Source of the DNA: an uncultured Anaerolineaceae bacterium
GTDB lineage: Bacteria > Chloroflexota > Anaerolineae > Anaerolineales > UBA4823
NCBI GenBank assembly: GCA_964633225.1
Contig: CAZWFQ010000003.1
Location: 26,064 to 90,063, forward strand
Direction of reading: 5' to 3'
DNA: 64,000 nucleotides
How positions within the stretch are numbered: position 1 is the first letter of the stretch; every line of letters starts with the position of its first letter. Positions 41,130 through 50,853 of this stretch are shown here, piece by piece. Both the position numbers and the translations under genes were made by a program. The notes beneath the pieces were generated by a model. The model searched no databases. It was not told where the DNA came from and worked only from the letters and a program-made list of their open reading frames with translations.

Positions 41130-41762
41130 TCAATCAAATACGGTCGGCAAGGTAGAGTCATTGTACGCCGCAAAGACATCCCGCAGAATACGCGGTGGGG
41201 TGCGCTCGCCCGAGAGCTCGCCTGGGATATCTTGCTGTGCAAAGAAAGCCACTTCAGTTGTCTCATTACTGGGTGTAGGCTGACCGCTTAATAAATCACA
41301 CAGAAAGACAAGCTTGAAGGCATGGAATAATTCTACCGGCCCAAAGCGGTTGCAGTCATAGATGCCCACCACCCGCCGGGCCTTGACTTTGAACCCGGCT
41401 TCTTCCCACACCTCTCGCTCTGATGCTTCAGAGGGCACATCGCCCACATCCGCCCAGCCGCCCGGCAGAGTCCAGCCGCCATCTATCCGCTCGCGCACCA
41501 TCAGCAGTTTGCCATCTTGGAAAACCGCCCCCCGCACATCGATGCGCGGGGTAGCATACCCAATCTGGGCCTTAAAAATGCTGCTCAAGGCCGCAAAATC
41601 CAGGCCGGCATACTCGCTGATCATCTCAGCCGCAATCTCATGCAAGCGCTGGTAGCGTTGGCGTTGAAAGTCGTCTTTGGCGTAATTGTTGCCGGTTTGG
41701 GCCAGTGCCTGAATCTCACGCGCCCATTCCAGCCAGCGAGGAGTGGTCACCGGATCGGTCAT
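41130..41762 (-). CDS. NUDIX hydrolase with N-terminal Nudix_N-type helical domain
   Basis: Nudix box GGWADVGDVPSEASEREVWEEAGF (G-x5-D-x7-REVxEEAGF). N-terminal WLEWAREIQALAQTGNNYAKD. Both ends overlap neighbouring genes by 4 nt. Confidence 0.88.
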   Translation of the reverse strand: MTDPVTTPRWLEWAREIQALAQTGNNYAKDDFQRQRYQRLHEIAAEMISEYAGLDFAALSSIFKAQIGYATPRIDVRGAVFQDGKLLMVRERIDGGWTLPGGWADVGDVPSEASEREVWEEAGFKVKARRVVGIYDCNRFGPVELFHAFKLVFLCDLLSGQPTPSNETTEVAFFAQQDIPGELSGERTPPRILRDVFAAYNDSTLPTVFD

Positions 41763-44557
41763 AGGGCTGCCAATACCTGCTCCTGATCCACCGGTAACCT
41801 GTCGACACGCACACCCACGGCGTGATAAATAGCATTGGTGATGGCAGGCGTGGTGGGAATACTGACCAGTTCACCCACTCCCTTGGCGCCATAGGGACCT
41901 TCAGCCGTAGGGTGCTCAACCACAATCGAGACGATCTCGGGCGTCAGCTCGATCGAAGGGATGCGGTAGCGCGCCAGGCGATCAGTGATGACCTGGCCAT
42001 TTTCTACCACAAACTGCTCGGTGAGGGCATTTCCCAGGCCCATCATGGCCCCGCCTTCCACCTGCCCCTGCAAACCCAACGGATTGAGCGCGCGCCCCAC
42101 ATCGTTGGCGGCGATCAGGCACAGCACACGTACTTCACCGGTCAGGGTATTCACTTCCACCTGGGCTGCCTGGGCGGCAAAGCCATAGGCAAAGTGCATC
42201 TTGCCGCCTTCGCCCAGCGGATTGGTGGTTGGGGCCCAATACTCATACAGTGCGCGCGGCTGACGGCCTTCGGCCTTGAGCAGCGCCACCACCTCGCCCA
42301 AGGGCAGGCGTTGATCGCCCACCTGGGCCAACCCTTCCACAAAGCGCACTTGCTCTGGGGGGCAGTCATACTTTTCCGCCAGGCTGCTGGCAAGCGCCTG
42401 GCGCAACGCCTGGGCGGCATGCCGGGCAGCATTGCCCGTCACATAGGTCTGGCGTGAAGCCGTAGTAGGGCCGCCGTCGGGCGTCAGGTCTGTATCCATC
42501 ACCAGCACCCGCACCCGCCCCGGCGCCACCTGAAACTCTTCTGCCACGGTCATTTGCAAGATGGTCACCAAGCCCTGGCCCAGCTCAGCCGACGAGGTGC
42601 GCACTTCCAAAGAGCCATCAGGGTACAATTCTACTTCGGCCCCGGCCTTATCAGGCGCGCCCCCGCCCAGGCCAGTATTCTTATAGGCCACAGCAAAGCC
42701 CCAGGCCCGCCGTTTGTGCGGCTCGCCAGCCACCGCCTGCGCCTTGAAAGGCTGGTCGCCAGCCCGGCGGCGCATTTCAGCTTCAACACGCTGGATGCAC
42801 TCCAACAGTCCAACACTCTCGTCCAACACCTGGCCTGTATTGGTCACGCTGCCCACGCGCAGCGCATTCATGCGCCGTAATTCCACCGGGTCCAGGCCAA
42901 GCTTCTCCGCCAGCATGTCCATCATGCTCTCAACGGCAAAGGCCGATTGGGTCACGCCAAAGCCTCGGAAAGCCCCCGCAGGCGGGTTATTGGTATACAT
43001 GGCATAACAATCGGCGCGGGCATGGGGTGATTCGTAAGGCCCCGAAGAATGGGTGGTGGCGCGCGTCAGCACTTTTTCGCCCAGCGAAGCATAAGCCCCG
43101 GTATCGCCATACAACTCCGTCTCAACAGCCGTCAGCGTCCCATCCTTGCGCGCCCCCACCTTCACCCGGATCTGGGTGGCGTGGCGCTTGGGGTGCACCA
43201 GCAGGCTCTCGTGCCGGTCAAACAACAGCTTGACCGGCCGGCCTGTGGCCTGGGCCAATAGCGCGGCGTGGATCTGCCCGGCAATATCTTCCTTACCGCC
43301 AAAACCACCCCCGATCAATTGGCCGATGATGCGCACCCGATCTTCTGACCATCCCAGGGCGCGTGCCACCTGGTTGCGGTCAGCATATGGGATTTGAGAA
43401 CCAACATACACTTCCATACGCTGAATCCCAGCATCATGTTCGTCTGGAACAAGACGGGCAATGCTGCACTCAGGTTCTAAAAATGCGTGGTCGGTAATGG
43501 CGGTATAGAAGGTATGTTCCATCACCACGTCTGCTTGAGCAAAGCCTTCGCTCACGTCGCCCTTGCGCACCTTGATGTGCTTGAGCAAGTTGCCGCCAGC
43601 GTGCAGGCTGGGGGCATCGGCCTGGCGTGCCTGCACTGGGCCAGCGACCACCGGCTGGAGGTCGTATTCTACCGCGATCAACTCCAGCGCTTGCAGGGCA
43701 ATCTCGCGCTGCTCAGCAGCAACAATGGCAATCGCATCCCCCACGTAACGCACCCGCTCACCTACCCCCACCATCACTGGCCAATCGGGGATCACAATGC
43801 CGTGCTGGCGCTCGCCGGGCAGGTCGGCGGCAGTCAACACCGCCGCCACGCCGGGCAAAGCGCGGGCCTTTTCCACATCAAGTGTCTTCAAAAAGGCGTG
43901 CGGCACACCCGCCCGCTTGACACAGGCATGCAGCATGCCCTCAAATTGCACATCATCCGTGAACCTGGCAGCCCCAGTCACTTTTGCCACCGCATCTGGG
44001 CGGGGCTGGTGGTGACCAATGGTAGCATATGCGTCCGCCTGGCCCGAATTTGCCACGTTGGGAGGCGGCACAGGCTCGCCCGTGCGCAGAGCATAGGCCG
44101 CCGCCTGGATGGCCCGCACAATAGTGGGGTAACCGGCACAGCGGCAGAGAGTATCTTTGAGGGCATGGCGGATCTCAGCCTCACTAGGGTCGGGCTTGGC
44201 CTGTAACAGTGCGCCAGCGGTCATGATCTGCCCGGGGATGCAAAAGCCACACTGCACCGCACCATGCAGCACAAAGGCCTGCTGAAGCGGGTGCAGGTCT
44301 TCAATGCGGGCATCTGCGCCCGCTACAGCCGACAGCCCTTCAATGGTCAGCACGTCTTTGCCTTCCACCCGCGCAGCCGGGTAGCTGCAAGACAGCACTG
44401 GCAGCCCATCCACCAACACAGTACACGCGCCACACTCAGCTTCGTTGCAGCCGATCTTGGTGCCGGTCAGGCCCAGGCGATTGCGCAGCAAATCTGCCAG
44501 CATCTCGCCAGGCAAAGGATCCAGGTTATATGCGGTTCCGTTAACGTGGAAGTTCAT
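41759..44557 (-). CDS. XDH-family fused [2Fe-2S] plus molybdopterin-binding catalytic subunit (enzyme C, XdhD/YgfN-like)
   Basis: GCNEAECGACTV, QCGFCIPG and CRCAGY. Then TDHAFLEPE, GGGFGGKED, KRHAT, FRGFGVTQ and GVGELV. The start overlaps the upstream FAD-subunit gene by 17 nt. Confidence 0.92.
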   Translation of the reverse strand: MNFHVNGTAYNLDPLPGEMLADLLRNRLGLTGTKIGCNEAECGACTVLVDGLPVLSCSYPAARVEGKDVLTIEGLSAVAGADARIEDLHPLQQAFVLHGAVQCGFCIPGQIMTAGALLQAKPDPSEAEIRHALKDTLCRCAGYPTIVRAIQAAAYALRTGEPVPPPNVANSGQADAYATIGHHQPRPDAVAKVTGAARFTDDVQFEGMLHACVKRAGVPHAFLKTLDVEKARALPGVAAVLTAADLPGERQHGIVIPDWPVMVGVGERVRYVGDAIAIVAAEQREIALQALELIAVEYDLQPVVAGPVQARQADAPSLHAGGNLLKHIKVRKGDVSEGFAQADVVMEHTFYTAITDHAFLEPECSIARLVPDEHDAGIQRMEVYVGSQIPYADRNQVARALGWSEDRVRIIGQLIGGGFGGKEDIAGQIHAALLAQATGRPVKLLFDRHESLLVHPKRHATQIRVKVGARKDGTLTAVETELYGDTGAYASLGEKVLTRATTHSSGPYESPHARADCYAMYTNNPPAGAFRGFGVTQSAFAVESMMDMLAEKLGLDPVELRRMNALRVGSVTNTGQVLDESVGLLECIQRVEAEMRRRAGDQPFKAQAVAGEPHKRRAWGFAVAYKNTGLGGGAPDKAGAEVELYPDGSLEVRTSSAELGQGLVTILQMTVAEEFQVAPGRVRVLVMDTDLTPDGGPTTASRQTYVTGNAARHAAQALRQALASSLAEKYDCPPEQVRFVEGLAQVGDQRLPLGEVVALLKAEGRQPRALYEYWAPTTNPLGEGGKMHFAYGFAAQAAQVEVNTLTGEVRVLCLIAANDVGRALNPLGLQGQVEGGAMMGLGNALTEQFVVENGQVITDRLARYRIPSIELTPEIVSIVVEHPTAEGPYGAKGVGELVSIPTTPAITNAIYHAVGVRVDRLPVDQEQVLAAL

Positions 44558-45491
44558 TACCAGCCCTTTCCCAGGCTAACGCCAGCACCTGGCGCAGCAG
44601 CACACCCGCCAAATGACGGCGGTATTCTGCCGTGGCGCGCTGCGGGCTGGTGCGGAAGCGTGCCTCACCCAACAAGGCTTCGTTGGCTTTTGCCAGGGCA
44701 GGCTCGTCCAACGGCTGTCCGAGCAACGCTTGCTCGGTTTGCAAGGCGCGCAAGGGCTTCAAGCCGGCAGGACCGATCGCAATTCGCACGCCCGCCAGGC
44801 GGTTGCCATCGCGCTGCAGCCAGGCCGCCAGGTTCAACACAGGCAGCGCCACCCCTTGGGGGCGCATCACCCGCCGGAAGGCTGATGCCTGGCCCGGCTG
44901 GCTCAAGGGCAGCCAGAAGCCCACCAACAGCTCCCTGCTTTCGGTCAATATCGAGCGCCCCGGCCCCAGGTAGAGATCGGTGATAGGCACAGTGCGCCTG
45001 CCGCTGCACCCAGCCAGTTCAGCCTGGGCATCCAGGGCGTGGAGAGCAATGCTGCCATCCGCAGCCGGCAGGGCATGCGCCACATTGCCGCCCAGGGTCG
45101 CCACGTTGCGCACCTGCGGCCCCCCCACCTGCCCGCAAGCCTCCACCAAAGCCTGGGCATGTTGGCACACCAGGGGCGCATCCACCAGGCGGTGCAAGGG
45201 TACAGCCGCGCCAATGAACAGCCGCTCACCGGTCACTTCAATGGTTTTTAGCTCAGGGATTTGGGTAATGTCGACCAGGGTGTCGACAGCAGCCTGGCGT
45301 CCCTGCTGTAACTCTAACAGCAGGTCGGTTCCACCAGCTACCAGGCGCGCCGGGCCGCTGGCTTTTGCCAGGGCTTGTAAGGCGTCTTCGATACTATGAG
45401 CAAGATAGTAACAGTTCCAGATGGTCATCGAATCGGCGAGATGGCGGTACTTTTCGACGGGCCGGCTGCCCGACGCCGGCGCAAGATTCAC
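44541..45491 (-). CDS. XDH-family FAD-binding subunit (enzyme C, YgfM-like)
   Basis: LVAGGTDLLLELQQG FAD motif and a CO_deh_flav_C-like C-terminus. The start is uncertain (GTG at 45491 or ATG at 45428). Confidence 0.85.
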   Translation of the reverse strand: MNLAPASGSRPVEKYRHLADSMTIWNCYYLAHSIEDALQALAKASGPARLVAGGTDLLLELQQGRQAAVDTLVDITQIPELKTIEVTGERLFIGAAVPLHRLVDAPLVCQHAQALVEACGQVGGPQVRNVATLGGNVAHALPAADGSIALHALDAQAELAGCSGRRTVPITDLYLGPGRSILTESRELLVGFWLPLSQPGQASAFRRVMRPQGVALPVLNLAAWLQRDGNRLAGVRIAIGPAGLKPLRALQTEQALLGQPLDEPALAKANEALLGEARFRTSPQRATAEYRRHLAGVLLRQVLALAWERAGNELPR

Positions 45492-45533: not shown

Positions 45534-45583
45534 CCGAAAACGAGTGTGAGACTGGTTGCGCATCGTCTCACACTCGTTTTCGG
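45534..45583 (-). terminator. 19-bp perfect-stem hairpin overlapping the last 5 codons and the stop of the SARP-type regulator gene
   Basis: CCGAAAACGAGTGTGAGAC, a 12-nt loop, then GTCTCACACTCGTTTTCGG. On the minus strand it is followed by ATTTAGATTATAAT. Confidence 0.45.
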
Positions 45584-48500
45584 GAGGCCACGATCTCTGC
45601 CAGGCTGAGGCACATGCCGCGGGCCTGGGCATCTGCCAACCGTTCAGCCGGGATCTTATCACGCAGGTGTTCGAGCAAACCGCTGGCCTTTTGATGGGTT
45701 TGCTCGTCGAGGCCGGTCTGCTGCAGGGCAAAGGACAGCAGTTCAACTGTACCTTCCATCTGTCCATCCAACGACAATGCCTCTGCAATCCCACATAATA
45801 CATCCACTGCCACGGGGGTCAGTTCAATCTCCACCGCCAGGGCCAGGGCTTCATCATAATATTGGCAGGCGCGGCCAGGATTGCCCCGCGTCACCCACAA
45901 GTTGCCCAGGCTGTTCAAAGCATACAGGATGCTTTTCCGATCGCTTGCCTGGCGGCTCATTGCCAGGCTCTGGTCATAGTGCAGCATGGCATTCTCGTAT
46001 TCGCCCAGTGCTTTCTCCACATCCCCCAGGTGCTTGAGGGTGCTGGCAATGCCCCACTGAAAGCCAATTTCCCGACAAATTGCCAGGCATTCCAGGCGCA
46101 GGTCACGCGCCCGTACAAATTCTTCGTGGATGTAGGCGATAATGCTCATGTTCTGCAGGCAGCGTGCCATCCCAGACCGGTCACTGATTTCGCGGAAGCA
46201 TTCCAGGGCCTGCTTGAAATACGCCTCTGCCTGGTCATAATCTCCCAATACTCCATTCAAGACACCCAGGCTGTTGAAGGCCATCGCCATACCCCAGGCA
46301 TTTTCCAGGCGGCCGTACAGCGCTAATGCCTGCATGGTAAGGGCTTTGGCCTGCTCCATATCGCCACGCATGCGGCTAACGTTAGATAGGGTATCGAGCA
46401 GCAGCGCAGCATTAAACAGGCTGCCAGCCTTTTCGTTTGCAACACGTGCTTCATCCAGGTATTGTTGGGCCAGGGCCAGGTCGCCGTGGTTAAACGCCAG
46501 GTCGCCTAACAGGCGCAGCCCCAGGGTGATCTCATGATAATCTTCCCTCAGACGCAGCAGTTCCAGGCCGCGCGCCAATAAAGCCTGGGCCTGGTCACCG
46601 TGGCTCAGCCTGGCCGCGAACATGCCCTGGCGCAGCATCAGGCTGCCCAGCAACCCTTCCATCCCATCCACCCGGTGGCGCCCCTTTTCCACCGCTGCCA
46701 CAGCCGCAGCAAACATTTCCAACCCCTCTTGGAACCAGGAATGGATCTCGTAGAATTGGCCCAGGCCGTTCAGCACAATCACCATCTGTGCAGACTGCCC
46801 CAGGGGGAGCATTTCTCCTTCCGGCACCCCCAAGGCAAGCATCGCCGTTCCCCACTGCCAGGCAGCGCGAATATTTTGGATATTAGCCCCGATGACTGCC
46901 AGGGCATGTTTTTGCTCCTTGCCCACCAGGGCCGGGCCATGCTCTGCCAGGAGATCAAAATAAAACGCACCATGCGCCTGCTGCACAGCCTGGTAATCCG
47001 CCGGGTCAGCTTGTAAATGCTCTTCAGCAAACTGCTGCACAGCCCGGTGCAGGCCGTAATTTCCGGCTGCCAGGCGGCGCACCAGGCTGCGCTCCACCAA
47101 ACCCGTCAAAACCTCCCCGCTGGCTCCTGCCACCTGGGCAGCCGCCTCTGCAGAGAATTCGCCCCGAAACACCGCCAGGCGTGCAAACACAGCCTGTGCC
47201 ACCGGCTCCAGCAAATCCCAGGAATGGTCAAATGCCGCCCGTAAACTGCGGTGGCGCTCGGGCATGTCGCGCAAGCGGGCGGTGGCAATATCCAGGCCCT
47301 GCGCCAACTGTGCAGCAATCTCTTCACAAGATTGCACCCGTACCCAAGAGCCCACCAACTCGATCCCCAGAGGCAGGCCTTCCAACAGTTGGCAAATGCG
47401 CAGCACAGGCAGGTATTCTCTTTGCAGGTCAAAACGCGGCTGGATGCGCCGCGCCGTCTGCTCAAATAAGAGCAGGGCGCTGTGCTCCCCCACCGGTACA
47501 CCGGCAGGGGTTCCATCTTCTGGGTACGCCAACCCTTCCACTTCCAACACGCACTCCAGGCGCAGGCTCAAGGGTTGGCGCGTGGTGGTGATGATCTTAA
47601 GCCCAGGGGCGCGTTCTAACATATCGGCTACCAACCCGGCTGCATCCAACAAGTGCTCGAAGTTGTCCAGCACCAACAAGATCTGCTTTTCTTGCAAGAA
47701 ATTGAGCAGTTGAGCTTCTGGGGCTTCTCGGCTGTAAAACCGGAGCTGTACGGCTTCCGCAATCGCCGGAGCCACCTGGCTGGCAGATGTCAATGGCGAT
47801 AATTTCACCAGGTAGACCCCGTTCTCAAACAACCCCACCTGCGTCGCAGCCGCCTCCAAAGCCAGGCGCGTCTTGCCGCTGCCGCCCGGGCCCACCAGGG
47901 TCAGCAGGCGGCAAGAGACATTTGCCAGGCTATCTGCCATGGCGTCTAATTCGGTCACCCGCCCAACCAGGGGCGTGGCTGGCTGCGGCAGGTTTTTCAA
48001 AGAGGGCCGGAACCGCGGCCGCAGCAGTTCATCATTGACCGCCGCAGGTGCAGCCCCGGTTTGCGCCAGGTGGGCGCGGATCGCAGCCGACAATCGCACG
48101 GTTTCTGTCGCCGGCTCTACCCCCATCTGCTCGCTCAGATAACGGCGGCAGACAGTAAACTGCGCCTGTGCTGCCGCCCACTGCCCATCCAGGGCCAGCA
48201 AACGCATCAACTCACTATGGGCCTGCTCTTCCCAAGGTGCCAGGTTGATCAATTGCGCTGCATCCTGGGCCGCCAGGGCAAATTCAGCCCGCCGCTCGTG
48301 GTATTCTACCAGGCGCGTCAGCACCTCGATCTGCTGCCGGCTAAGCTCCTCGCGCAGCATGCTGGCCCACTCGTCAAACAAGGGCCCCCCGCTCAAGTAG
48401 AACTGGTCCAGGAACCCGCCCCGGTAAAGCGCAGCTGCCTTCCGCAGGCGGCGAAAATTGACCCCTTGCTGGCCTCCCCCGCGCCCCTTACTGCTTTGGT

Positions 48501-48894
48501 AATGCGCCAATGCAGCCTGCACATCTTCTCGGTAAGCCCGCACATCCAGCCAATGATCGCAGTCGGGATTGAACTGGACGCTGCCATCTGGCTGGACCAG
48601 CAGAAATGGCCGGTTGGCAGGCGTGCCATCCCCCCCCTGCGGCACAGCACCGGCATCCTCCTTCAACGCCTTGCGCAAATTTGAAAGCGCCTGCCGCAAG
48701 CTGTGCAGAGCCTTATCTTCCGGTTGGTCTGACCACAACAATCCAGCCAGGTGTTCTCGGCGGTGAGAGCGCTGATTTTCAACCATCAGGTAGATCAATA
48801 AAGCCCTAACCTTATCAGAAGCAAAGGCTTGGAGCGGCCGCCCATCCAATTCCGCGGCGAAGGAACCCAGGCAGGTCATGCGCAGCATTGTCAA
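45568..48894 (-). CDS. AfsR/SARP-type STAND transcriptional regulator (winged-helix DNA-binding domain, BTAD, NB-ARC ATPase, TPR)
   Basis: N-terminus CLGSFAAELDGRPLQAFASDKVRALLIYLMVE...LWSD...LRQALSNLRKAL. BTAD (WLDVRAY..., YRGGFLDQF). Walker A GPGGSGKTRLA. Many TPR-like repeats. Start is the TTG at 48894 or the ATG at 48888. Confidence 0.9.
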   Translation of the reverse strand: MTMLRMTCLGSFAAELDGRPLQAFASDKVRALLIYLMVENQRSHRREHLAGLLWSDQPEDKALHSLRQALSNLRKALKEDAGAVPQGGDGTPANRPFLLVQPDGSVQFNPDCDHWLDVRAYREDVQAALAHYQSSKGRGGGQQGVNFRRLRKAAALYRGGFLDQFYLSGGPLFDEWASMLREELSRQQIEVLTRLVEYHERRAEFALAAQDAAQLINLAPWEEQAHSELMRLLALDGQWAAAQAQFTVCRRYLSEQMGVEPATETVRLSAAIRAHLAQTGAAPAAVNDELLRPRFRPSLKNLPQPATPLVGRVTELDAMADSLANVSCRLLTLVGPGGSGKTRLALEAAATQVGLFENGVYLVKLSPLTSASQVAPAIAEAVQLRFYSREAPEAQLLNFLQEKQILLVLDNFEHLLDAAGLVADMLERAPGLKIITTTRQPLSLRLECVLEVEGLAYPEDGTPAGVPVGEHSALLLFEQTARRIQPRFDLQREYLPVLRICQLLEGLPLGIELVGSWVRVQSCEEIAAQLAQGLDIATARLRDMPERHRSLRAAFDHSWDLLEPVAQAVFARLAVFRGEFSAEAAAQVAGASGEVLTGLVERSLVRRLAAGNYGLHRAVQQFAEEHLQADPADYQAVQQAHGAFYFDLLAEHGPALVGKEQKHALAVIGANIQNIRAAWQWGTAMLALGVPEGEMLPLGQSAQMVIVLNGLGQFYEIHSWFQEGLEMFAAAVAAVEKGRHRVDGMEGLLGSLMLRQGMFAARLSHGDQAQALLARGLELLRLREDYHEITLGLRLLGDLAFNHGDLALAQQYLDEARVANEKAGSLFNAALLLDTLSNVSRMRGDMEQAKALTMQALALYGRLENAWGMAMAFNSLGVLNGVLGDYDQAEAYFKQALECFREISDRSGMARCLQNMSIIAYIHEEFVRARDLRLECLAICREIGFQWGIASTLKHLGDVEKALGEYENAMLHYDQSLAMSRQASDRKSILYALNSLGNLWVTRGNPGRACQYYDEALALAVEIELTPVAVDVLCGIAEALSLDGQMEGTVELLSFALQQTGLDEQTHQKASGLLEHLRDKIPAERLADAQARGMCLSLAEIVASRKRV

Positions 48895-48934
48895 ATAATA
48901 CCTCTAACAAAAATAACCTCCTCATTATAAAAGA

Positions 48935-48978
48935 TTTACGCAAAAATTGACGCTTTCTTGACGCCCATTCTGTATCAT
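48935..48978 (+). promoter_or_regulatory. heptad direct repeats (TTTACGC, TTGACGC, TTGACGC) plus a TATCAT -10 box: candidate SARP-activated promoter
   Basis: Repeats at 48935-48941, 48947-48953 and 48958-48964 (the last two 11 nt start to start). The -10 TATCAT lies at 48973-48978, exactly 8 nt after the last repeat. The ATG at 48987 is 8 nt after the -10. Confidence 0.6.
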
Positions 48979-48986
48979 GTAGGCGT

Positions 48987-49244
48987 ATGAGACACTACTT
49001 TTCTTACCTTCTTCGCATCTGGCAGCCTCTCTCTCCCACCTGGAAAGGAGACTTAGCTACAGCCCCCCAAGAGACCGACTGGATGGCATCCCTTGAAGAC
49101 CCCCACACCCACCAGGTTCATCATTTCAACAGCCTGGCAGACCTGTACCAATTCATTCAACAGCAGGCAGATACGCTGGACTGCCCGCCCGAAACCAAAC
49201 CGGTTGCCCCTCAACCGATCCAATCTCCCCCTCGAAAGGAATAG
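48987..49244 (+). CDS. small hypothetical protein (85 aa) with YLLRIW ... WMASLEDPHT motif
   Basis: First ATG after the candidate promoter (leaderless geometry). It ends 4 nt before the beta-helix gene. Coding status rests on position and on motif recollection only. Confidence 0.5.
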   Translation: MRHYFSYLLRIWQPLSPTWKGDLATAPQETDWMASLEDPHTHQVHHFNSLADLYQFIQQQADTLDCPPETKPVAPQPIQSPPRKE

Positions 49245-49248
49245 AACC

Positions 49249-50853
49249 ATGAAATCCAAGCACGCCCTTCGTCCTGTTTCACCCATCATTTTATTCATCA
49301 GCCTGGCCCTTTTTGGGCTGCTCCTCTTCAGCCTGGCGGATGCCGGCCCGGCTGCCGCCGCGCCCCAGGCTACCACCATCACCGTCAACAGCGGCACCGA
49401 TCCCGATACCAGCCAAAGTAACACCTGTATCTCGCACACGCCCTGCACCCTGCGCCGGGCCATCGTCCAGGCTCGTAACACCGCCGGGGACGTGGTCATC
49501 GCATTTGACATTCCCGAAAGTGCAGCCGAGGGGTGGAATTCCGCGTTGGGTATCTGGAAAATAAATATCAACGAAATCACACCCATCTCCGGCAGCGTCT
49601 TCCGCCGCCTGACCGGGAACATCACCATCGATGGCTCCACCCAGCCTGGTGGACGCAGCAGCGGACCCAAGATCATCATTCACGGGCCAAAAACGGGCCA
49701 GAATGACGGGTTGATCGTGGGCGACTTTGCCGGCAATGATCACATTGTGATCCGCGGTCTGGGCTTCCAGAACCTTACAACTCATATTAACATCAATACC
49801 GACTACAATACCATTGAAGACTGTTGGTTTGGCCTGAGCGATGATGGCACCGCCATGTATATGCGTGGCAATAACCCCGACAGCGGCAGCGGTGGTACGG
49901 GAGTTGCAGTAAAAATTGGGGCCAATAATAACCTGATCCAGAACAACGTTTTCTTAGGCATCTCCGGCGTGGCAGCCGCCATCGATGGCGACCACAACAC
50001 ATTCGCCAACAATTACGTCGGCACACGCGCCGATGGCAATGTCCCCGATCTGGCGCCTTCTCAGGTTTGCTCACCGGTGGATTGGCAAGGCGGCAGCGGC
50101 CTGAGCATCTCAGATGACTACAATATCATCGAAAACAACATCATCGCCGGGCTGCGCCTGGATGTTGAACCCCCATCCATTCAGCCTGACGCCATCCGAG
50201 TCAGCGGAGACAATCACATCTTCCGGGAAAACATCATTGGCGAGGATATCAACGGCACCCAGGTGGGGGTCTGTGGGCGCGGGATCTACCTGACCAGCAG
50301 TACCAAGTACAACCTGGTAATAGATAACCGCATTGTTTCGCCAGGCTATTCAGCCATTTCGCTGAACGACTCGCCGACCGATGTCATCACATCCAACGGC
50401 AACACTCTGAGCACCAATGTGATTATCAAATACACGCCCTGGGGCGAGGTAGAAGGCCAGACCAGCCCTGAAGACGCCATCCAGGTAACAAAGAGCATGC
50501 CCACCGCCTTTAAAAACTTCAAGCCAGCCGCCGTGACATCCATTGAAGGCGTCAATATCTCCGGCACAGCCGGCGCTAACAGCCCCTGCAACCTCTGCAC
50601 GATCGAGATCTTCCTCGATGATGACGATGGCATCAACGAGGCCCTGCAGTCGCTGGCTGTGGTCACCGCCGATGCCAACGGCAATTGGAGCGCCACCCTC
50701 CCCGCCGCCCTCACCGCAGGACAGGGCCTGCGCACCACAACCACCACGCATGAATATGGAGATATCGCCGGGATGTATGCTGGCACCACCACCGGCCTCT
50801 CAGAGTTGTATGTGCCCGGCTACGAGGTCTTCTTGCCAATGATCTCTCGCTAA
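49249..50853 (+). CDS. secreted right-handed parallel beta-helix repeat protein
   Basis: ATG at 49249 preceded by AAAGGA. Signal peptide MKSKHALRPVSPIILFISLALFGLLLFSLADA. CTLRRAIVQARN motif. Repeated (I/V)xGN/Dxxxxxxxxxxx(N/D)N beta-helix rungs. Confidence 0.85.
   Translation: MKSKHALRPVSPIILFISLALFGLLLFSLADAGPAAAAPQATTITVNSGTDPDTSQSNTCISHTPCTLRRAIVQARNTAGDVVIAFDIPESAAEGWNSALGIWKININEITPISGSVFRRLTGNITIDGSTQPGGRSSGPKIIIHGPKTGQNDGLIVGDFAGNDHIVIRGLGFQNLTTHININTDYNTIEDCWFGLSDDGTAMYMRGNNPDSGSGGTGVAVKIGANNNLIQNNVFLGISGVAAAIDGDHNTFANNYVGTRADGNVPDLAPSQVCSPVDWQGGSGLSISDDYNIIENNIIAGLRLDVEPPSIQPDAIRVSGDNHIFRENIIGEDINGTQVGVCGRGIYLTSSTKYNLVIDNRIVSPGYSAISLNDSPTDVITSNGNTLSTNVIIKYTPWGEVEGQTSPEDAIQVTKSMPTAFKNFKPAAVTSIEGVNISGTAGANSPCNLCTIEIFLDDDDGINEALQSLAVVTADANGNWSATLPAALTAGQGLRTTTTTHEYGDIAGMYAGTTTGLSELYVPGYEVFLPMISR

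Follow-up and report, generated by a model that had tools for sequence, protein, structure and literature searches.

What switches on the plus-strand genes that lie back to back with a large regulatory gene in an uncultured Anaerolineaceae bacterium, and is it the regulator next door? The question is raised by a 92-nt gap in a stretch of 64,000 nucleotides (assembly GCA_964633225.1, contig CAZWFQ010000003.1, positions 26,064 to 90,063 of the forward strand), in which a minus-strand gene for a protein of the SARP (Streptomyces antibiotic regulatory protein) type and the first plus-strand open reading frame (ORF) diverge. Throughout, "the window" denotes this whole 64-kb stretch, and all positions given without a locus prefix are window positions. 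The gap holds a pair of TTGACGC heptads followed by a -10 box, and comparison with related loci makes it very probable that these elements constitute the cognate SARP operator-promoter of the neighbouring regulator, for which we infer both binding and activation.

A probable SARP-type promoter between divergent genes

ActII-ORF4, DnrI and RedD act at heptameric direct repeats with an 11-bp period, the last of which lies 8 bp from the -10 box and replaces the -35 element. The general rule for SARP promoters sets the direct repeats at a distance of 11 or 22 bp from one another and places the 3' repeat 8 bp upstream of the -10 box (PMC10936776, PMC11301090). The corresponding elements in the window, together with one that had been claimed as a further repeat, are:

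48935-48941, plus strand: TTTACGC, claimed as a third (distal) repeat, unsupported as a component of the site
48947-48953, plus strand: upstream heptad TTGACGC, at about -38 to -32 with a transcription start site (TSS) at 48985
48954-48957, plus strand: T-rich 4-nt spacer TTTC, which rounds off the 11-bp repeat unit
48958-48964, plus strand: promoter-proximal heptad TTGACGC, at about -27 to -21, 8 nt before the -10 box
48973-48978, plus strand: -10 box TATCAT, of the TAnnnT class, 8 nt (48965-48972) after the proximal heptad
48985..48987, plus strand: predicted TSS, 7-9 nt past the last -10 base, inferred from the geometry of the -10 box

The heptads at 48947 and 48958 start 11 nt apart and the second stands 8 nt from TATCAT, exactly as in the published SARP spacing. 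Re-reading of 48700-49200 reproduced both distances and found every coordinate that the original prediction had assigned to the repeats, -10 box and ATG to be correct, and the gap from the start of the longest regulator ORF (TTG 48894) to the ATG at 48987 again measured 92 nt. The repeats sit in the -35/spacer region, and the TTGACG of the upstream heptad is a -35-like hexamer that lies 20 nt from the -10 box, the other copy lying 9 nt from it. The claim that neither TTGACG is at a usable -35 distance is borne out by these spacers and by a scan with the sigma-70 consensus, which returned no -35/-10 promoter in 48500-49500 and no -35 at 16-18 nt from TATCAT; the lack of a properly spaced -35 element is itself a feature of SARP promoters.

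Three heptad repeats had originally been counted. The two nearest the -10 box are conserved among related loci (see below), but the distal TTTACGC at 48935 is rejected because it is out of register, at 12 rather than 11 nt from the next heptad, and is not conserved: It is kept, as TTTACAG, only in a close relative (the one with 84% identity in the small protein encoded by the first plus-strand gene) and is absent from 30 more distant loci.

The single heptad TTGACGC is not over-represented in the window (9 copies vs. 8.3 expected), as might be the case if the repeat had arisen by chance in an A/T-rich intergenic region. Yet the exact 18-nt heptad pair occurs only once in the window, where its nearest relatives have 3 mismatches and are about as frequent as expected by chance, and the pattern T[GC]AC[GA]-N6-T[GC]AC[GA]-N8-10-TAnnnT matches this site only in the 64 kb on both strands. 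Given that conservation of the site over about 32 loci is also far beyond that in shuffled sequences, the chance explanation is effectively refuted. Elsewhere in the window, a search at relaxed stringency gave no further site, and there is no other SARP or small-protein gene.

Several other candidate elements were set aside. A terminator-like hairpin on the minus strand (48965-48949), upstream of the regulator gene, has 5 pairs including a G-T pair; 0.9 such hairpins are expected in shuffles, and we treat it as an artefact of the repeats. A promoter of the extracytoplasmic-function (ECF) type was dismissed by reasoning only, in that elements 11 nt apart misfit a -35/-10 pair, and no structured-RNA family in Rfam reached its gathering score anywhere in the window.

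The regulator is a large SARP

45568..48894, minus strand: encodes a 1108-aa regulator of the AfsR-like "large SARP" class, assigned from Pfam domains and modelled structure

That the adjacent gene encodes a SARP-type protein, as originally predicted, is upheld by its Pfam domains, its sequence matches to AfsR and its modelled fold. The domain order is an OmpR-type DNA-binding domain, BTAD, NB-ARC/NOD ATPase and TPR. An N-terminal OmpR-type winged helix with BTAD directly behind it defines the SARP family, and a central NB-ARC/NOD ATPase with a Walker A motif and a C-terminal TPR sensor domain define its large members; the regulator has all four. Scores are well above their cut-offs for BTAD (PF03704, 62.8 bits vs. 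22.1, residues 139-273) and for NB-ARC (PF00931, 37 bits vs. 23.5); the Walker A motif, GPGGSGKT, is at residue 335, TPR_12 scores 59 bits, and further TPR models match residues 830-986.

By sequence, the N-terminal 290 aa match only AfsR among solved structures (8HVR/8K60/8JKE), the phmmer alignment covering residues 4-81. An AlphaFold2 model of residues 1-300, built on 31 homologues, has a mean predicted local distance difference test (pLDDT) score of 90.8 and contains an all-helical domain at residues 117-278. The top Foldseek match of this model is the AfsR SARP domain in transcription-initiation complexes (E 1e-11, template modelling [TM] score 0.62-0.75), and EmbR is also recovered (2FEZ/2FF4; E about 1e-9, TM 0.5-0.64). 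Judged from its domain content and from the superposition of its predicted model on AfsR and EmbR, the regulator is a large SARP of AfsR architecture. It is not an orthologue of Streptomyces AfsR, a possibility that we rejected on its score of 97 bits against the AfsR equivalog NF053617 of NCBIfam, for which the cut-off is 1430.

The start of the regulator gene is ambiguous by two codons. The longest ORF begins at TTG 48894, the start originally assigned, with AGAGG 6 nt upstream, whereas the regulator of the close relative starts at an ATG equivalent to window position 48888, the other candidate. Aligned to L017, the locus of this relative, window positions 48886-48910 contain extra bases (8-nt and 4-nt alignment gaps) between the Shine-Dalgarno (SD)-like AGAGG and ATG 48888, and these create the in-frame TTG 48894.

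Conservation of the site across related loci

We assembled a set of loci from contigs encoding homologues of the small protein and from a scan of one genome per species. This yielded about 32 non-redundant loci, all from Anaerolineae/Chloroflexota, of which 30 came from the genome scan. The closest public relative is the metagenome-assembled genome (MAG) GCA_035341015.1, from the Anaerolineales, and all of the closest relatives are Anaerolineales/Anaerolineae MAGs. A divergent SARP-type gene lies directly upstream in 29/30 scan loci, and the regulators of the full set show 30-78% identity.

A strict pattern, TGAC[GA]-N6-TGAC[GA], is present in 15 of the scan loci, where it occurs exactly once per approximately 14 kb and always within the divergent gap. 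The remaining loci have regulators that are 30-39% identical to that of the window, and most keep the layout with other heptads, as in these variant sites:

TTCACGT-TTTC-TTCACGC, then 8 nt, then TATCCT
CCCACGT-TTTC-CCCACGC, then 8 nt, then TAGGTT
three ATGCG/ATACG repeats, an 8-nt gap and TATGGT
four TCACG-type repeats, an 8-nt gap and CATACT

Seven loci (L022, L032, L036, L038, L042, L044 and L045) were registered by hand, the automatic scan having returned no site at the expected place or one in a different place. Aligned on the proximal heptad, the loci give the consensus nT[G/C]ACGn-TTTy-nT[G/C]ACGc-N8-TAnnnT. Position 4 of the heptad is A in 31/32 loci for the upstream copy and in 29/32 for the proximal one, and T fills the first three columns of the spacer in 28, 25 and 26 of the 32, respectively. 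Between the proximal heptad and the -10 box, most loci have a gap of 8 nt, and two have one of 7 nt. As registered, 28/32 loci have TAnnnT in the -10 column, to which L016 and L027 can be added if a 7-nt gap is allowed; the exceptions are L038 (CATACT) and L044 (AATAAT). Columns beyond the repeats and the -10 box are near random, such that the site is the sole conserved island in intergenic regions that otherwise cannot be aligned.

In an unbiased grid scan of periods 7-15 and gaps 4-13, enrichment was confined to period 11, which was found in up to 17/32 loci, as opposed to 0-3 at other periods. When we searched the 230-nt regions downstream of the SARP start for the full architecture (heptads matching at 5/7 or more positions, period 11, gap 8 and TAnnnT), it was present in 24/30 regions, with two to four heptads each, whereas shuffled regions averaged 2.3, with 7 at most. 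With the heptad match raised to at least 6/7, the rate was 92-fold above that in the remainder of the same loci. The original prediction had allowed that a lack of conservation upstream of related genes would speak against it; the repeats are conserved there.

Although the repeats have a fixed relation to the plus-strand -10 box, the gap also holds a probable promoter for the regulator itself:

48924..48929, minus strand: TATAAT (ATTATA on the plus strand), which probably serves as the -10 box of a divergent promoter for the regulator itself

Most of the related intergenic regions inspected also contain ATTATA. In the window, the heptad of the pair that is farther from the plus-strand -10 box starts exactly 17 nt upstream of the minus-strand TATAAT, at the place of a -35 element, where the minus-strand hexamer reads CGTCAA. 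This arrangement would suit a SARP that binds here mainly to repress or activate its own divergent promoter, with the plus-strand operon driven independently. Across loci, the distance from the repeats to the minus-strand TATAAT varies from 15 to about 40 nt, as against the fixed 8 (or 7) nt to the plus-strand -10 box; the orientation and register of the repeats fit plus-strand activation as in afsS; and at loci with a tandem arrangement (described below), the motif follows the regulator gene rather than preceding it. We therefore consider a site devoted mainly to the regulator's own promoter to be improbable, although autoregulation of the regulator gene is possible without being a conserved constraint.

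Loci retrieved by the motif alone

A search that starts from the DNA, and not from the small protein, also leads to SARP genes beside the motif. A metagenome collection was scanned with TTGACGNTTTNTTGACGC-N8-TANNNT alone, and 80 loci were returned, many of them on short contigs. A SARP N-terminal domain was detected by hidden Markov model in 21/80; three further loci have the small protein only, with no upstream room, and one is a truncated copy of a SARP locus. Thus, a SARP gene, a small-protein gene, or both adjoin the motif in at least 25/80 loci, or in 25/59 after the collapse of 21 identical human-gut copies.

Linkage in 29/30 loci, the conserved footprint, the period of 11 and the loci recovered by motif each support, by comparison, the original claim that the site is the cognate operator of the adjacent regulator. 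Also confirmed is that its repeat, TTGACGC, is unlike the TCGAG type, and its register equals that of the afs box bound by AfsR.

Among the loci returned by the motif, a group of metagenome contigs with a GC content of about 0.47 (L052:5190-9750, L111:973-6190 and L057:6365-10332; also L059 and L122) carries a BTAD-AAA_16-TPR (AfsR-like) gene, with TTGACGn-TTTn-TTGACGC-N8-TAnnnT placed in tandem, 15-60 nt past the stop codon of the regulator. The tandem promoter precedes genes for histidine ammonia-lyase, urocanase and formiminotransferase. These low-GC loci share the gene order of afsR followed by afsS, but the promoter stands before a catabolic operon for histidine utilization (hut).

About 20 identical human-gut contigs (L096:4772-4803, minus strand; also L049, L053, L054, L064, L073 and others) have TTGACGATTTTTTGACGC-N8-TATATT, without a single change, in front of a V-type ATPase operon, with no SARP-like gene in the 5.5 kb of upstream DNA retrieved. 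This copy could be a remote member of a regulon, the site of another OmpR-type protein, or a chance match. Further copies of the motif with a good -10 box and no SARP in 1-7 kb of retrieved upstream DNA are found at L079:7377-7408 (minus strand), L089:5958-5989, L061:988-1019 and L055:7604-7635 (minus strand). As read from the translations, the copy in L079 precedes a 1,924-aa ORF with a hydrophobic N-terminal segment and that in L089 precedes a 580-aa ORF with a lipoprotein-like N-terminus; L061 and L055 contain four and three TTGACG repeats, respectively, at 11-nt spacing.

Repeat types and the recognition helix

Heptad types differ by regulator lineage (TGACG, TCACG, CCACG, ATGCG and TT[CG]AGAG), and the geometry is constant. 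Moreover, paralogous modules within one genome have different heptads, there being four such pairs of loci (L029 and L033, L022 and L036, L035 and L042, L025 and L044). On the one 1.9-Mb contig of Brevefilum bin505, TTCACG at L029 is paired with ATGCG at L033, and in HGW-Chloroflexi-10, TTGACG at L025 is paired with ATCACG at L044. Genomes with two modules suggest insulated paralogous circuits, and different heptads are what one would expect if each cognate pair is to be kept free of cross-talk.

In its complex with DNA, AfsR contacts the third base pair of the repeat TTCAGC through T88 and the first T through R92 (PMC10936776). The residue equivalent to T88 is Q in 16/16 loci of the divergent family in which both heptads have TGAC and the helix is readable, and it is also Q in L035, which has mixed TTGACGC/TTCACGA heptads. 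L029, L030, L022 and L039, with TCACG or CCACG heptads, have Y or H at this position; the ATGCG loci have N, and the TT[CG]AGAG and GGAAATG loci some other residue. In all 16 Chloroflexi-type regulators that were recovered from the DNA motif alone, the residue is Q, as predicted. An initially suggestive correlation between the R92 position and the first base of the heptad was dropped, since the motif-first loci show H, T, S, Q, L and K at that position with T as the first base.

Evidence against a cognate SARP operator

Not all observations favour a SARP acting at its own operator, and those that weigh against it are of several kinds. In the regulator, the Pfam match to Trans_reg_C falls slightly short of its cut-off (E 5.4e-5, 23.6 bits vs. 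26.2). The automatic scan for period 11 and gap 8 found no site in the promoter region of seven loci, and at least L032 is still without clear repeats. The covariation of helix and heptad is confounded by shared ancestry, and some loci do not conform to it: Q stands with TCACG in L038 and L044, residues other than Q are found in L037 (T) and L042 (N) despite mostly TGAC heptads, and TTGACG goes with D or N in the distant tandem regulators. In roughly half of the motif-first loci, some of them with 4-9 kb of DNA upstream, the sequence retrieved contains no SARP; similar sites may be read by other proteins, or a site may be remote from its regulator. Finally, TTGACG matches 5/6 positions of TTGACA, the sigma-70 -35 element.

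The last of these points, along with the TG directly 5' of TATCAT, is what might be seen if no activator were involved and each TTGACG were the ordinary -35 element of one or two sigma-70-type promoters with other -10 boxes, the repeat having been produced by local duplication. But neither copy of TTGACG has a -10-like hexamer 16-18 nt away; at the same positions, related loci hold TCACG, CCACG or ATGCG, which are not -35-like; and it is the 11-nt period and 8-nt gap that are conserved, not a 17-nt spacer. A promoter of this ordinary kind is very hard to credit.

The motif-first loci without a SARP in the retrieved DNA raise a different prospect, in which some other winged-helix regulator of the OmpR/PhoB family, such as a response regulator with a pho-box-like 7+4 site, binds here and the SARP gene is a mere neighbour. 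The pho box consists of a 7-bp direct repeat and a 4-bp A/T-rich spacer with an 11-bp period, to which winged helices bind in tandem, head to tail, and replace the -35 element, and boxes of this PhoB type thus share the repeat, spacer, period and -35 replacement of the present site; also, AfsR and PhoP are known to share sites. Set against this, a SARP adjoins in 29/30 loci gathered by protein and in at least 25/80 gathered by motif, the heptad varies with the lineage of the SARP and between paralogous modules of the same genome, and the 8-bp rule is specific to SARPs. Binding by such a regulator in place of the SARP is quite improbable, and a SARP reading its own operator remains the explanation that we prefer.

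Start of the transcript

Only 8 nt, GTAGGCGT, separate TATCAT from the ATG at 48987-48989, and they contain no SD sequence. Four genes farther downstream that start with ATG have AAAGGA, AAGGAG, AAAGGAG or AAAGGGG 5-9 nt upstream, and downstream ORFs that start with GTG or TTG have a weaker SD-like purine run or none. The start codon is 6-8 nt past the -10 box in the window and in L017, L025, L027 and L016, which represent three sequence groups, and the position of the small-protein start codon can be regarded as fixed because the N-terminus of the protein is conserved. Most other loci have either a leader of 30-75 nt with an SD sequence or another gene in first place (an 828-aa protein in L011 and L014), and therefore leaderlessness is not part of the conserved design. 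Against a TSS exactly on the A of the ATG, a discriminator of 8 nt is at the long end.

The original prediction of a leaderless transcript consequently holds only in part: The missing SD sequence, the ATG 8 nt past the -10 box and four similar loci speak for it, but it would apply to some lineages only. On the sequences at hand, the balance tips toward an mRNA in the lineage of the window that is leaderless or has a 2-nt leader.

The small protein and the genes behind it

48987..49244, plus strand: first gene, encoding an 85-aa protein of an uncharacterised family, supported by homologues and codon pattern
49249..50853, plus strand: second gene, whose 534-aa product has a signal/transmembrane segment at its N-terminus as well as a right-handed beta-helix

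Homologues of the 85-aa protein have 84% and 42-49% identity to it. Their alignment has 22 invariant columns, with a conserved N-terminus, the start codon at the same place, and a core that reads Y-x-S-Y-L-L-R-x-W-Q ... W-x-A-S-L-E-D-P-H ... H-F-N-S-L. Differences between the 85-aa ORF and that of a close relative cluster at third codon positions (20, vs. 9 and 8 at the others), and by its homologues and this codon pattern the ORF is a genuine gene. A profile search recovered 2,890 clusters at 50% identity, mostly of 60-95 aa, and the protein matched no family in Pfam or NCBIfam. Its AlphaFold2 model, of moderate confidence (pLDDT 71), consists of three strands and a helix and had no significant fold match in the PDB, the best E being 0.6. 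In the Anaerolineae loci that we examined, the small-protein gene is nearly always beside a SARP-NOD-TPR gene.

The gene for the 534-aa protein starts 4 nt after the stop of the small ORF, an order of genes that recurs in L001-L008, and the two are probably co-transcribed. The Pfam Beta_helix match of the 534-aa protein is slightly short of the cut-off (25.8 bits vs. 25.9), and there is a weak N-terminal match to CSLREA (TIGR04214, E 0.015; motif CTLRRA). At related loci, the products of the downstream genes are large proteins made of repeats, with domains of the beta-helix, beta-propeller (DUF5122, Reg_prop, Kelch/FG-GAP or DUF7948/SBBP) or Ig-like kind, and a C25 peptidase. From their domain content, as distinct from a signal-peptide test, we take these proteins to be extracellular. 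No biosynthetic gene cluster is apparent among the target genes of the window and related loci.

Beyond the beta-helix gene, and with gaps of 14 nt or less, follow genes for DUF1361, homocysteine S-methyltransferase, MOSC, M20 peptidase and DUF1385 proteins, which look like housekeeping genes; synteny in this direction breaks after MOSC in L004. On the other side of the locus, directly downstream of the regulator gene (41759-45491, minus strand), are two genes, one encoding a molybdopterin-dehydrogenase FAD-binding subunit (FAD_binding_5/CO_deh_flav_C) and the other a large subunit of 932 aa, which in orthologous loci has Ald_Xan_dh_C/MoCoBD domains. Synteny of both extends to the close relative, and nothing evident ties them to the regulator.

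Proposed mechanism and known systems

At the afsS promoter, a 22-bp box is centred at -29.5, and its upstream repeat overlaps a poor -35 element, TTCAGC, at -38 to -33 and 20 bp from the -10 box; two SARP protomers bound side by side take over the -35 site and make contact with sigma region 4, the beta flap and the alpha subunit's C-terminal domain (PMC10936776, PMC11301090). With a TSS at 48985, the repeat units of the window span -40 to -19 and are likewise centred at -29.5, with TTGACG at -38 to -33. Because this register is identical to that of afsS, we propose the same mechanism for the window.

According to this proposal, the segment 48945-48978 would be a SARP-dependent promoter that is class-II-like and works by "sigma adaptation". 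Two regulator protomers would bind side by side on the two 11-bp units, centred near -29.5 if transcription starts at 48985, the upstream protomer covering the misplaced -35-like TTGACG and the downstream protomer ending 8 bp from TATCAT. The bound dimer would then stand in for the -35 contact and recruit sigma-A RNA polymerase, and activation would turn on the gene for the 85-aa small protein and that for the secreted beta-helix protein behind it. The NB-ARC/TPR part presumably gates activation in response to a signal, and the transcript in the lineage of the window probably starts at the ATG or 2 nt before it.

Of known systems, AfsR and afsS of Streptomyces coelicolor (cryo-EM structures 8HVR, 8K60 and 8JKE) come closest. 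AfsR has the same domain order as the window regulator and is the best match of its N-terminal domain in both sequence and structure, although identity in the structural alignment is only 24-25%. The two promoters have in common the pair of 11-bp repeats, the 8 bp to the -10 box, the -35-like hexamer 20 bp from it and a centre at about -29.5, and a small-protein gene is the first target in both, but the small protein of the window is unrelated to AfsS. They differ in the heptad, which is of the TTCAGC type for AfsR and TTGACGC in the window; in the contact residues, with T88 and R92 of AfsR corresponding to Q and N; in arrangement, the target being downstream of afsR but divergent from the window regulator; and in host, which for the window is a member of the Anaerolineales. 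No link to a kinase of the AfsK type is known for the window regulator. The parallel with AfsR and afsS, as a large SARP activating a neighbouring small-protein gene, is a suggestive analogy.

The small SARPs ActII-ORF4, DnrI and RedD share with the window system the SARP domain (the DNA-binding domain plus BTAD), the 11-bp period and the 8-bp gap, but they have TCGAG-type heptads and no NOD or TPR, as opposed to TTGACGC and a regulator with both. They are also pathway-specific, whereas the targets in the window and its relatives comprise a small protein and, beside it, large extracellular proteins of the beta-helix or beta-propeller kind. Class-II activation by PhoB and others of the OmpR family follows the same plan of repeat and spacer and the same replacement of the -35 element; the window regulator, in contrast, has no receiver domain, and contacts between BTAD and RNA polymerase and the 8-bp distance are features of SARPs. 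EmbR of Mycobacterium tuberculosis has the fold of the SARP domain in common with the window regulator, but has a C-terminal FHA domain instead of NOD-TPR, and its promoter architecture is less well defined.

Implications

According to one review, SARPs are "exclusively found in actinobacteria" (PMC10972967), and reviews also describe them as mainly actinobacterial. The present host is not an actinobacterium, which concerns the reported distribution of the family and not its structural definition. No paper in the library searched connects SARPs with Anaerolineae or Chloroflexi, but the annotation pipelines of JGI and NCBI already label such proteins SARP/BTAD. By its architecture, the window promoter is of the textbook SARP kind; the phylum is new for it, and so are the class of heptad and the set of targets.

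We can also entertain, as a doubtful but not far-fetched extension, that the regulator, the small protein and one or more large extracellular proteins form a conserved and undescribed signalling circuit of Anaerolineae, and that the SARP geometry is ancestral to several phyla, the latter because AfsR-like regulators on low-GC contigs stand in tandem before hut operons with the same TTGACG repeats. If so, the YxSYLLRxWQ...WxASLEDPH protein of 65-90 aa would be a functional counterpart of AfsS and could be an effector or feedback partner of the TPR/NOD sensor of the regulator, and the circuit would determine which beta-helix or beta-propeller proteins are displayed at the cell surface. The geometry of "sigma adaptation" by SARPs would then not be an invention of the actinobacteria, and the pairs of heptads and recognition helices would amount to a readable code for DNA recognition by SARPs.

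The large, unannotated family of small proteins (approximately 2,900 clusters) gains a regulatory context from these loci, and the dozens of natural operator/regulator pairs are a data set on how helix residues relate to bases and a source of orthogonal SARP switches. In the literature, SARP activators figure as specialists of the actinobacteria that serve antibiotic gene clusters. In the present loci, the whole grammar of a SARP promoter (11-bp repeats, 8 bp to the -10 box, and a displaced -35 element with a 20-bp spacer) is conserved in Chloroflexota and seems to occur also in low-GC bacteria of the gut or of sludge, and nothing evident connects the genes behind these promoters with the making of antibiotics. 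The mechanism known from AfsR would accordingly be of greater age and wider occurrence than described so far.

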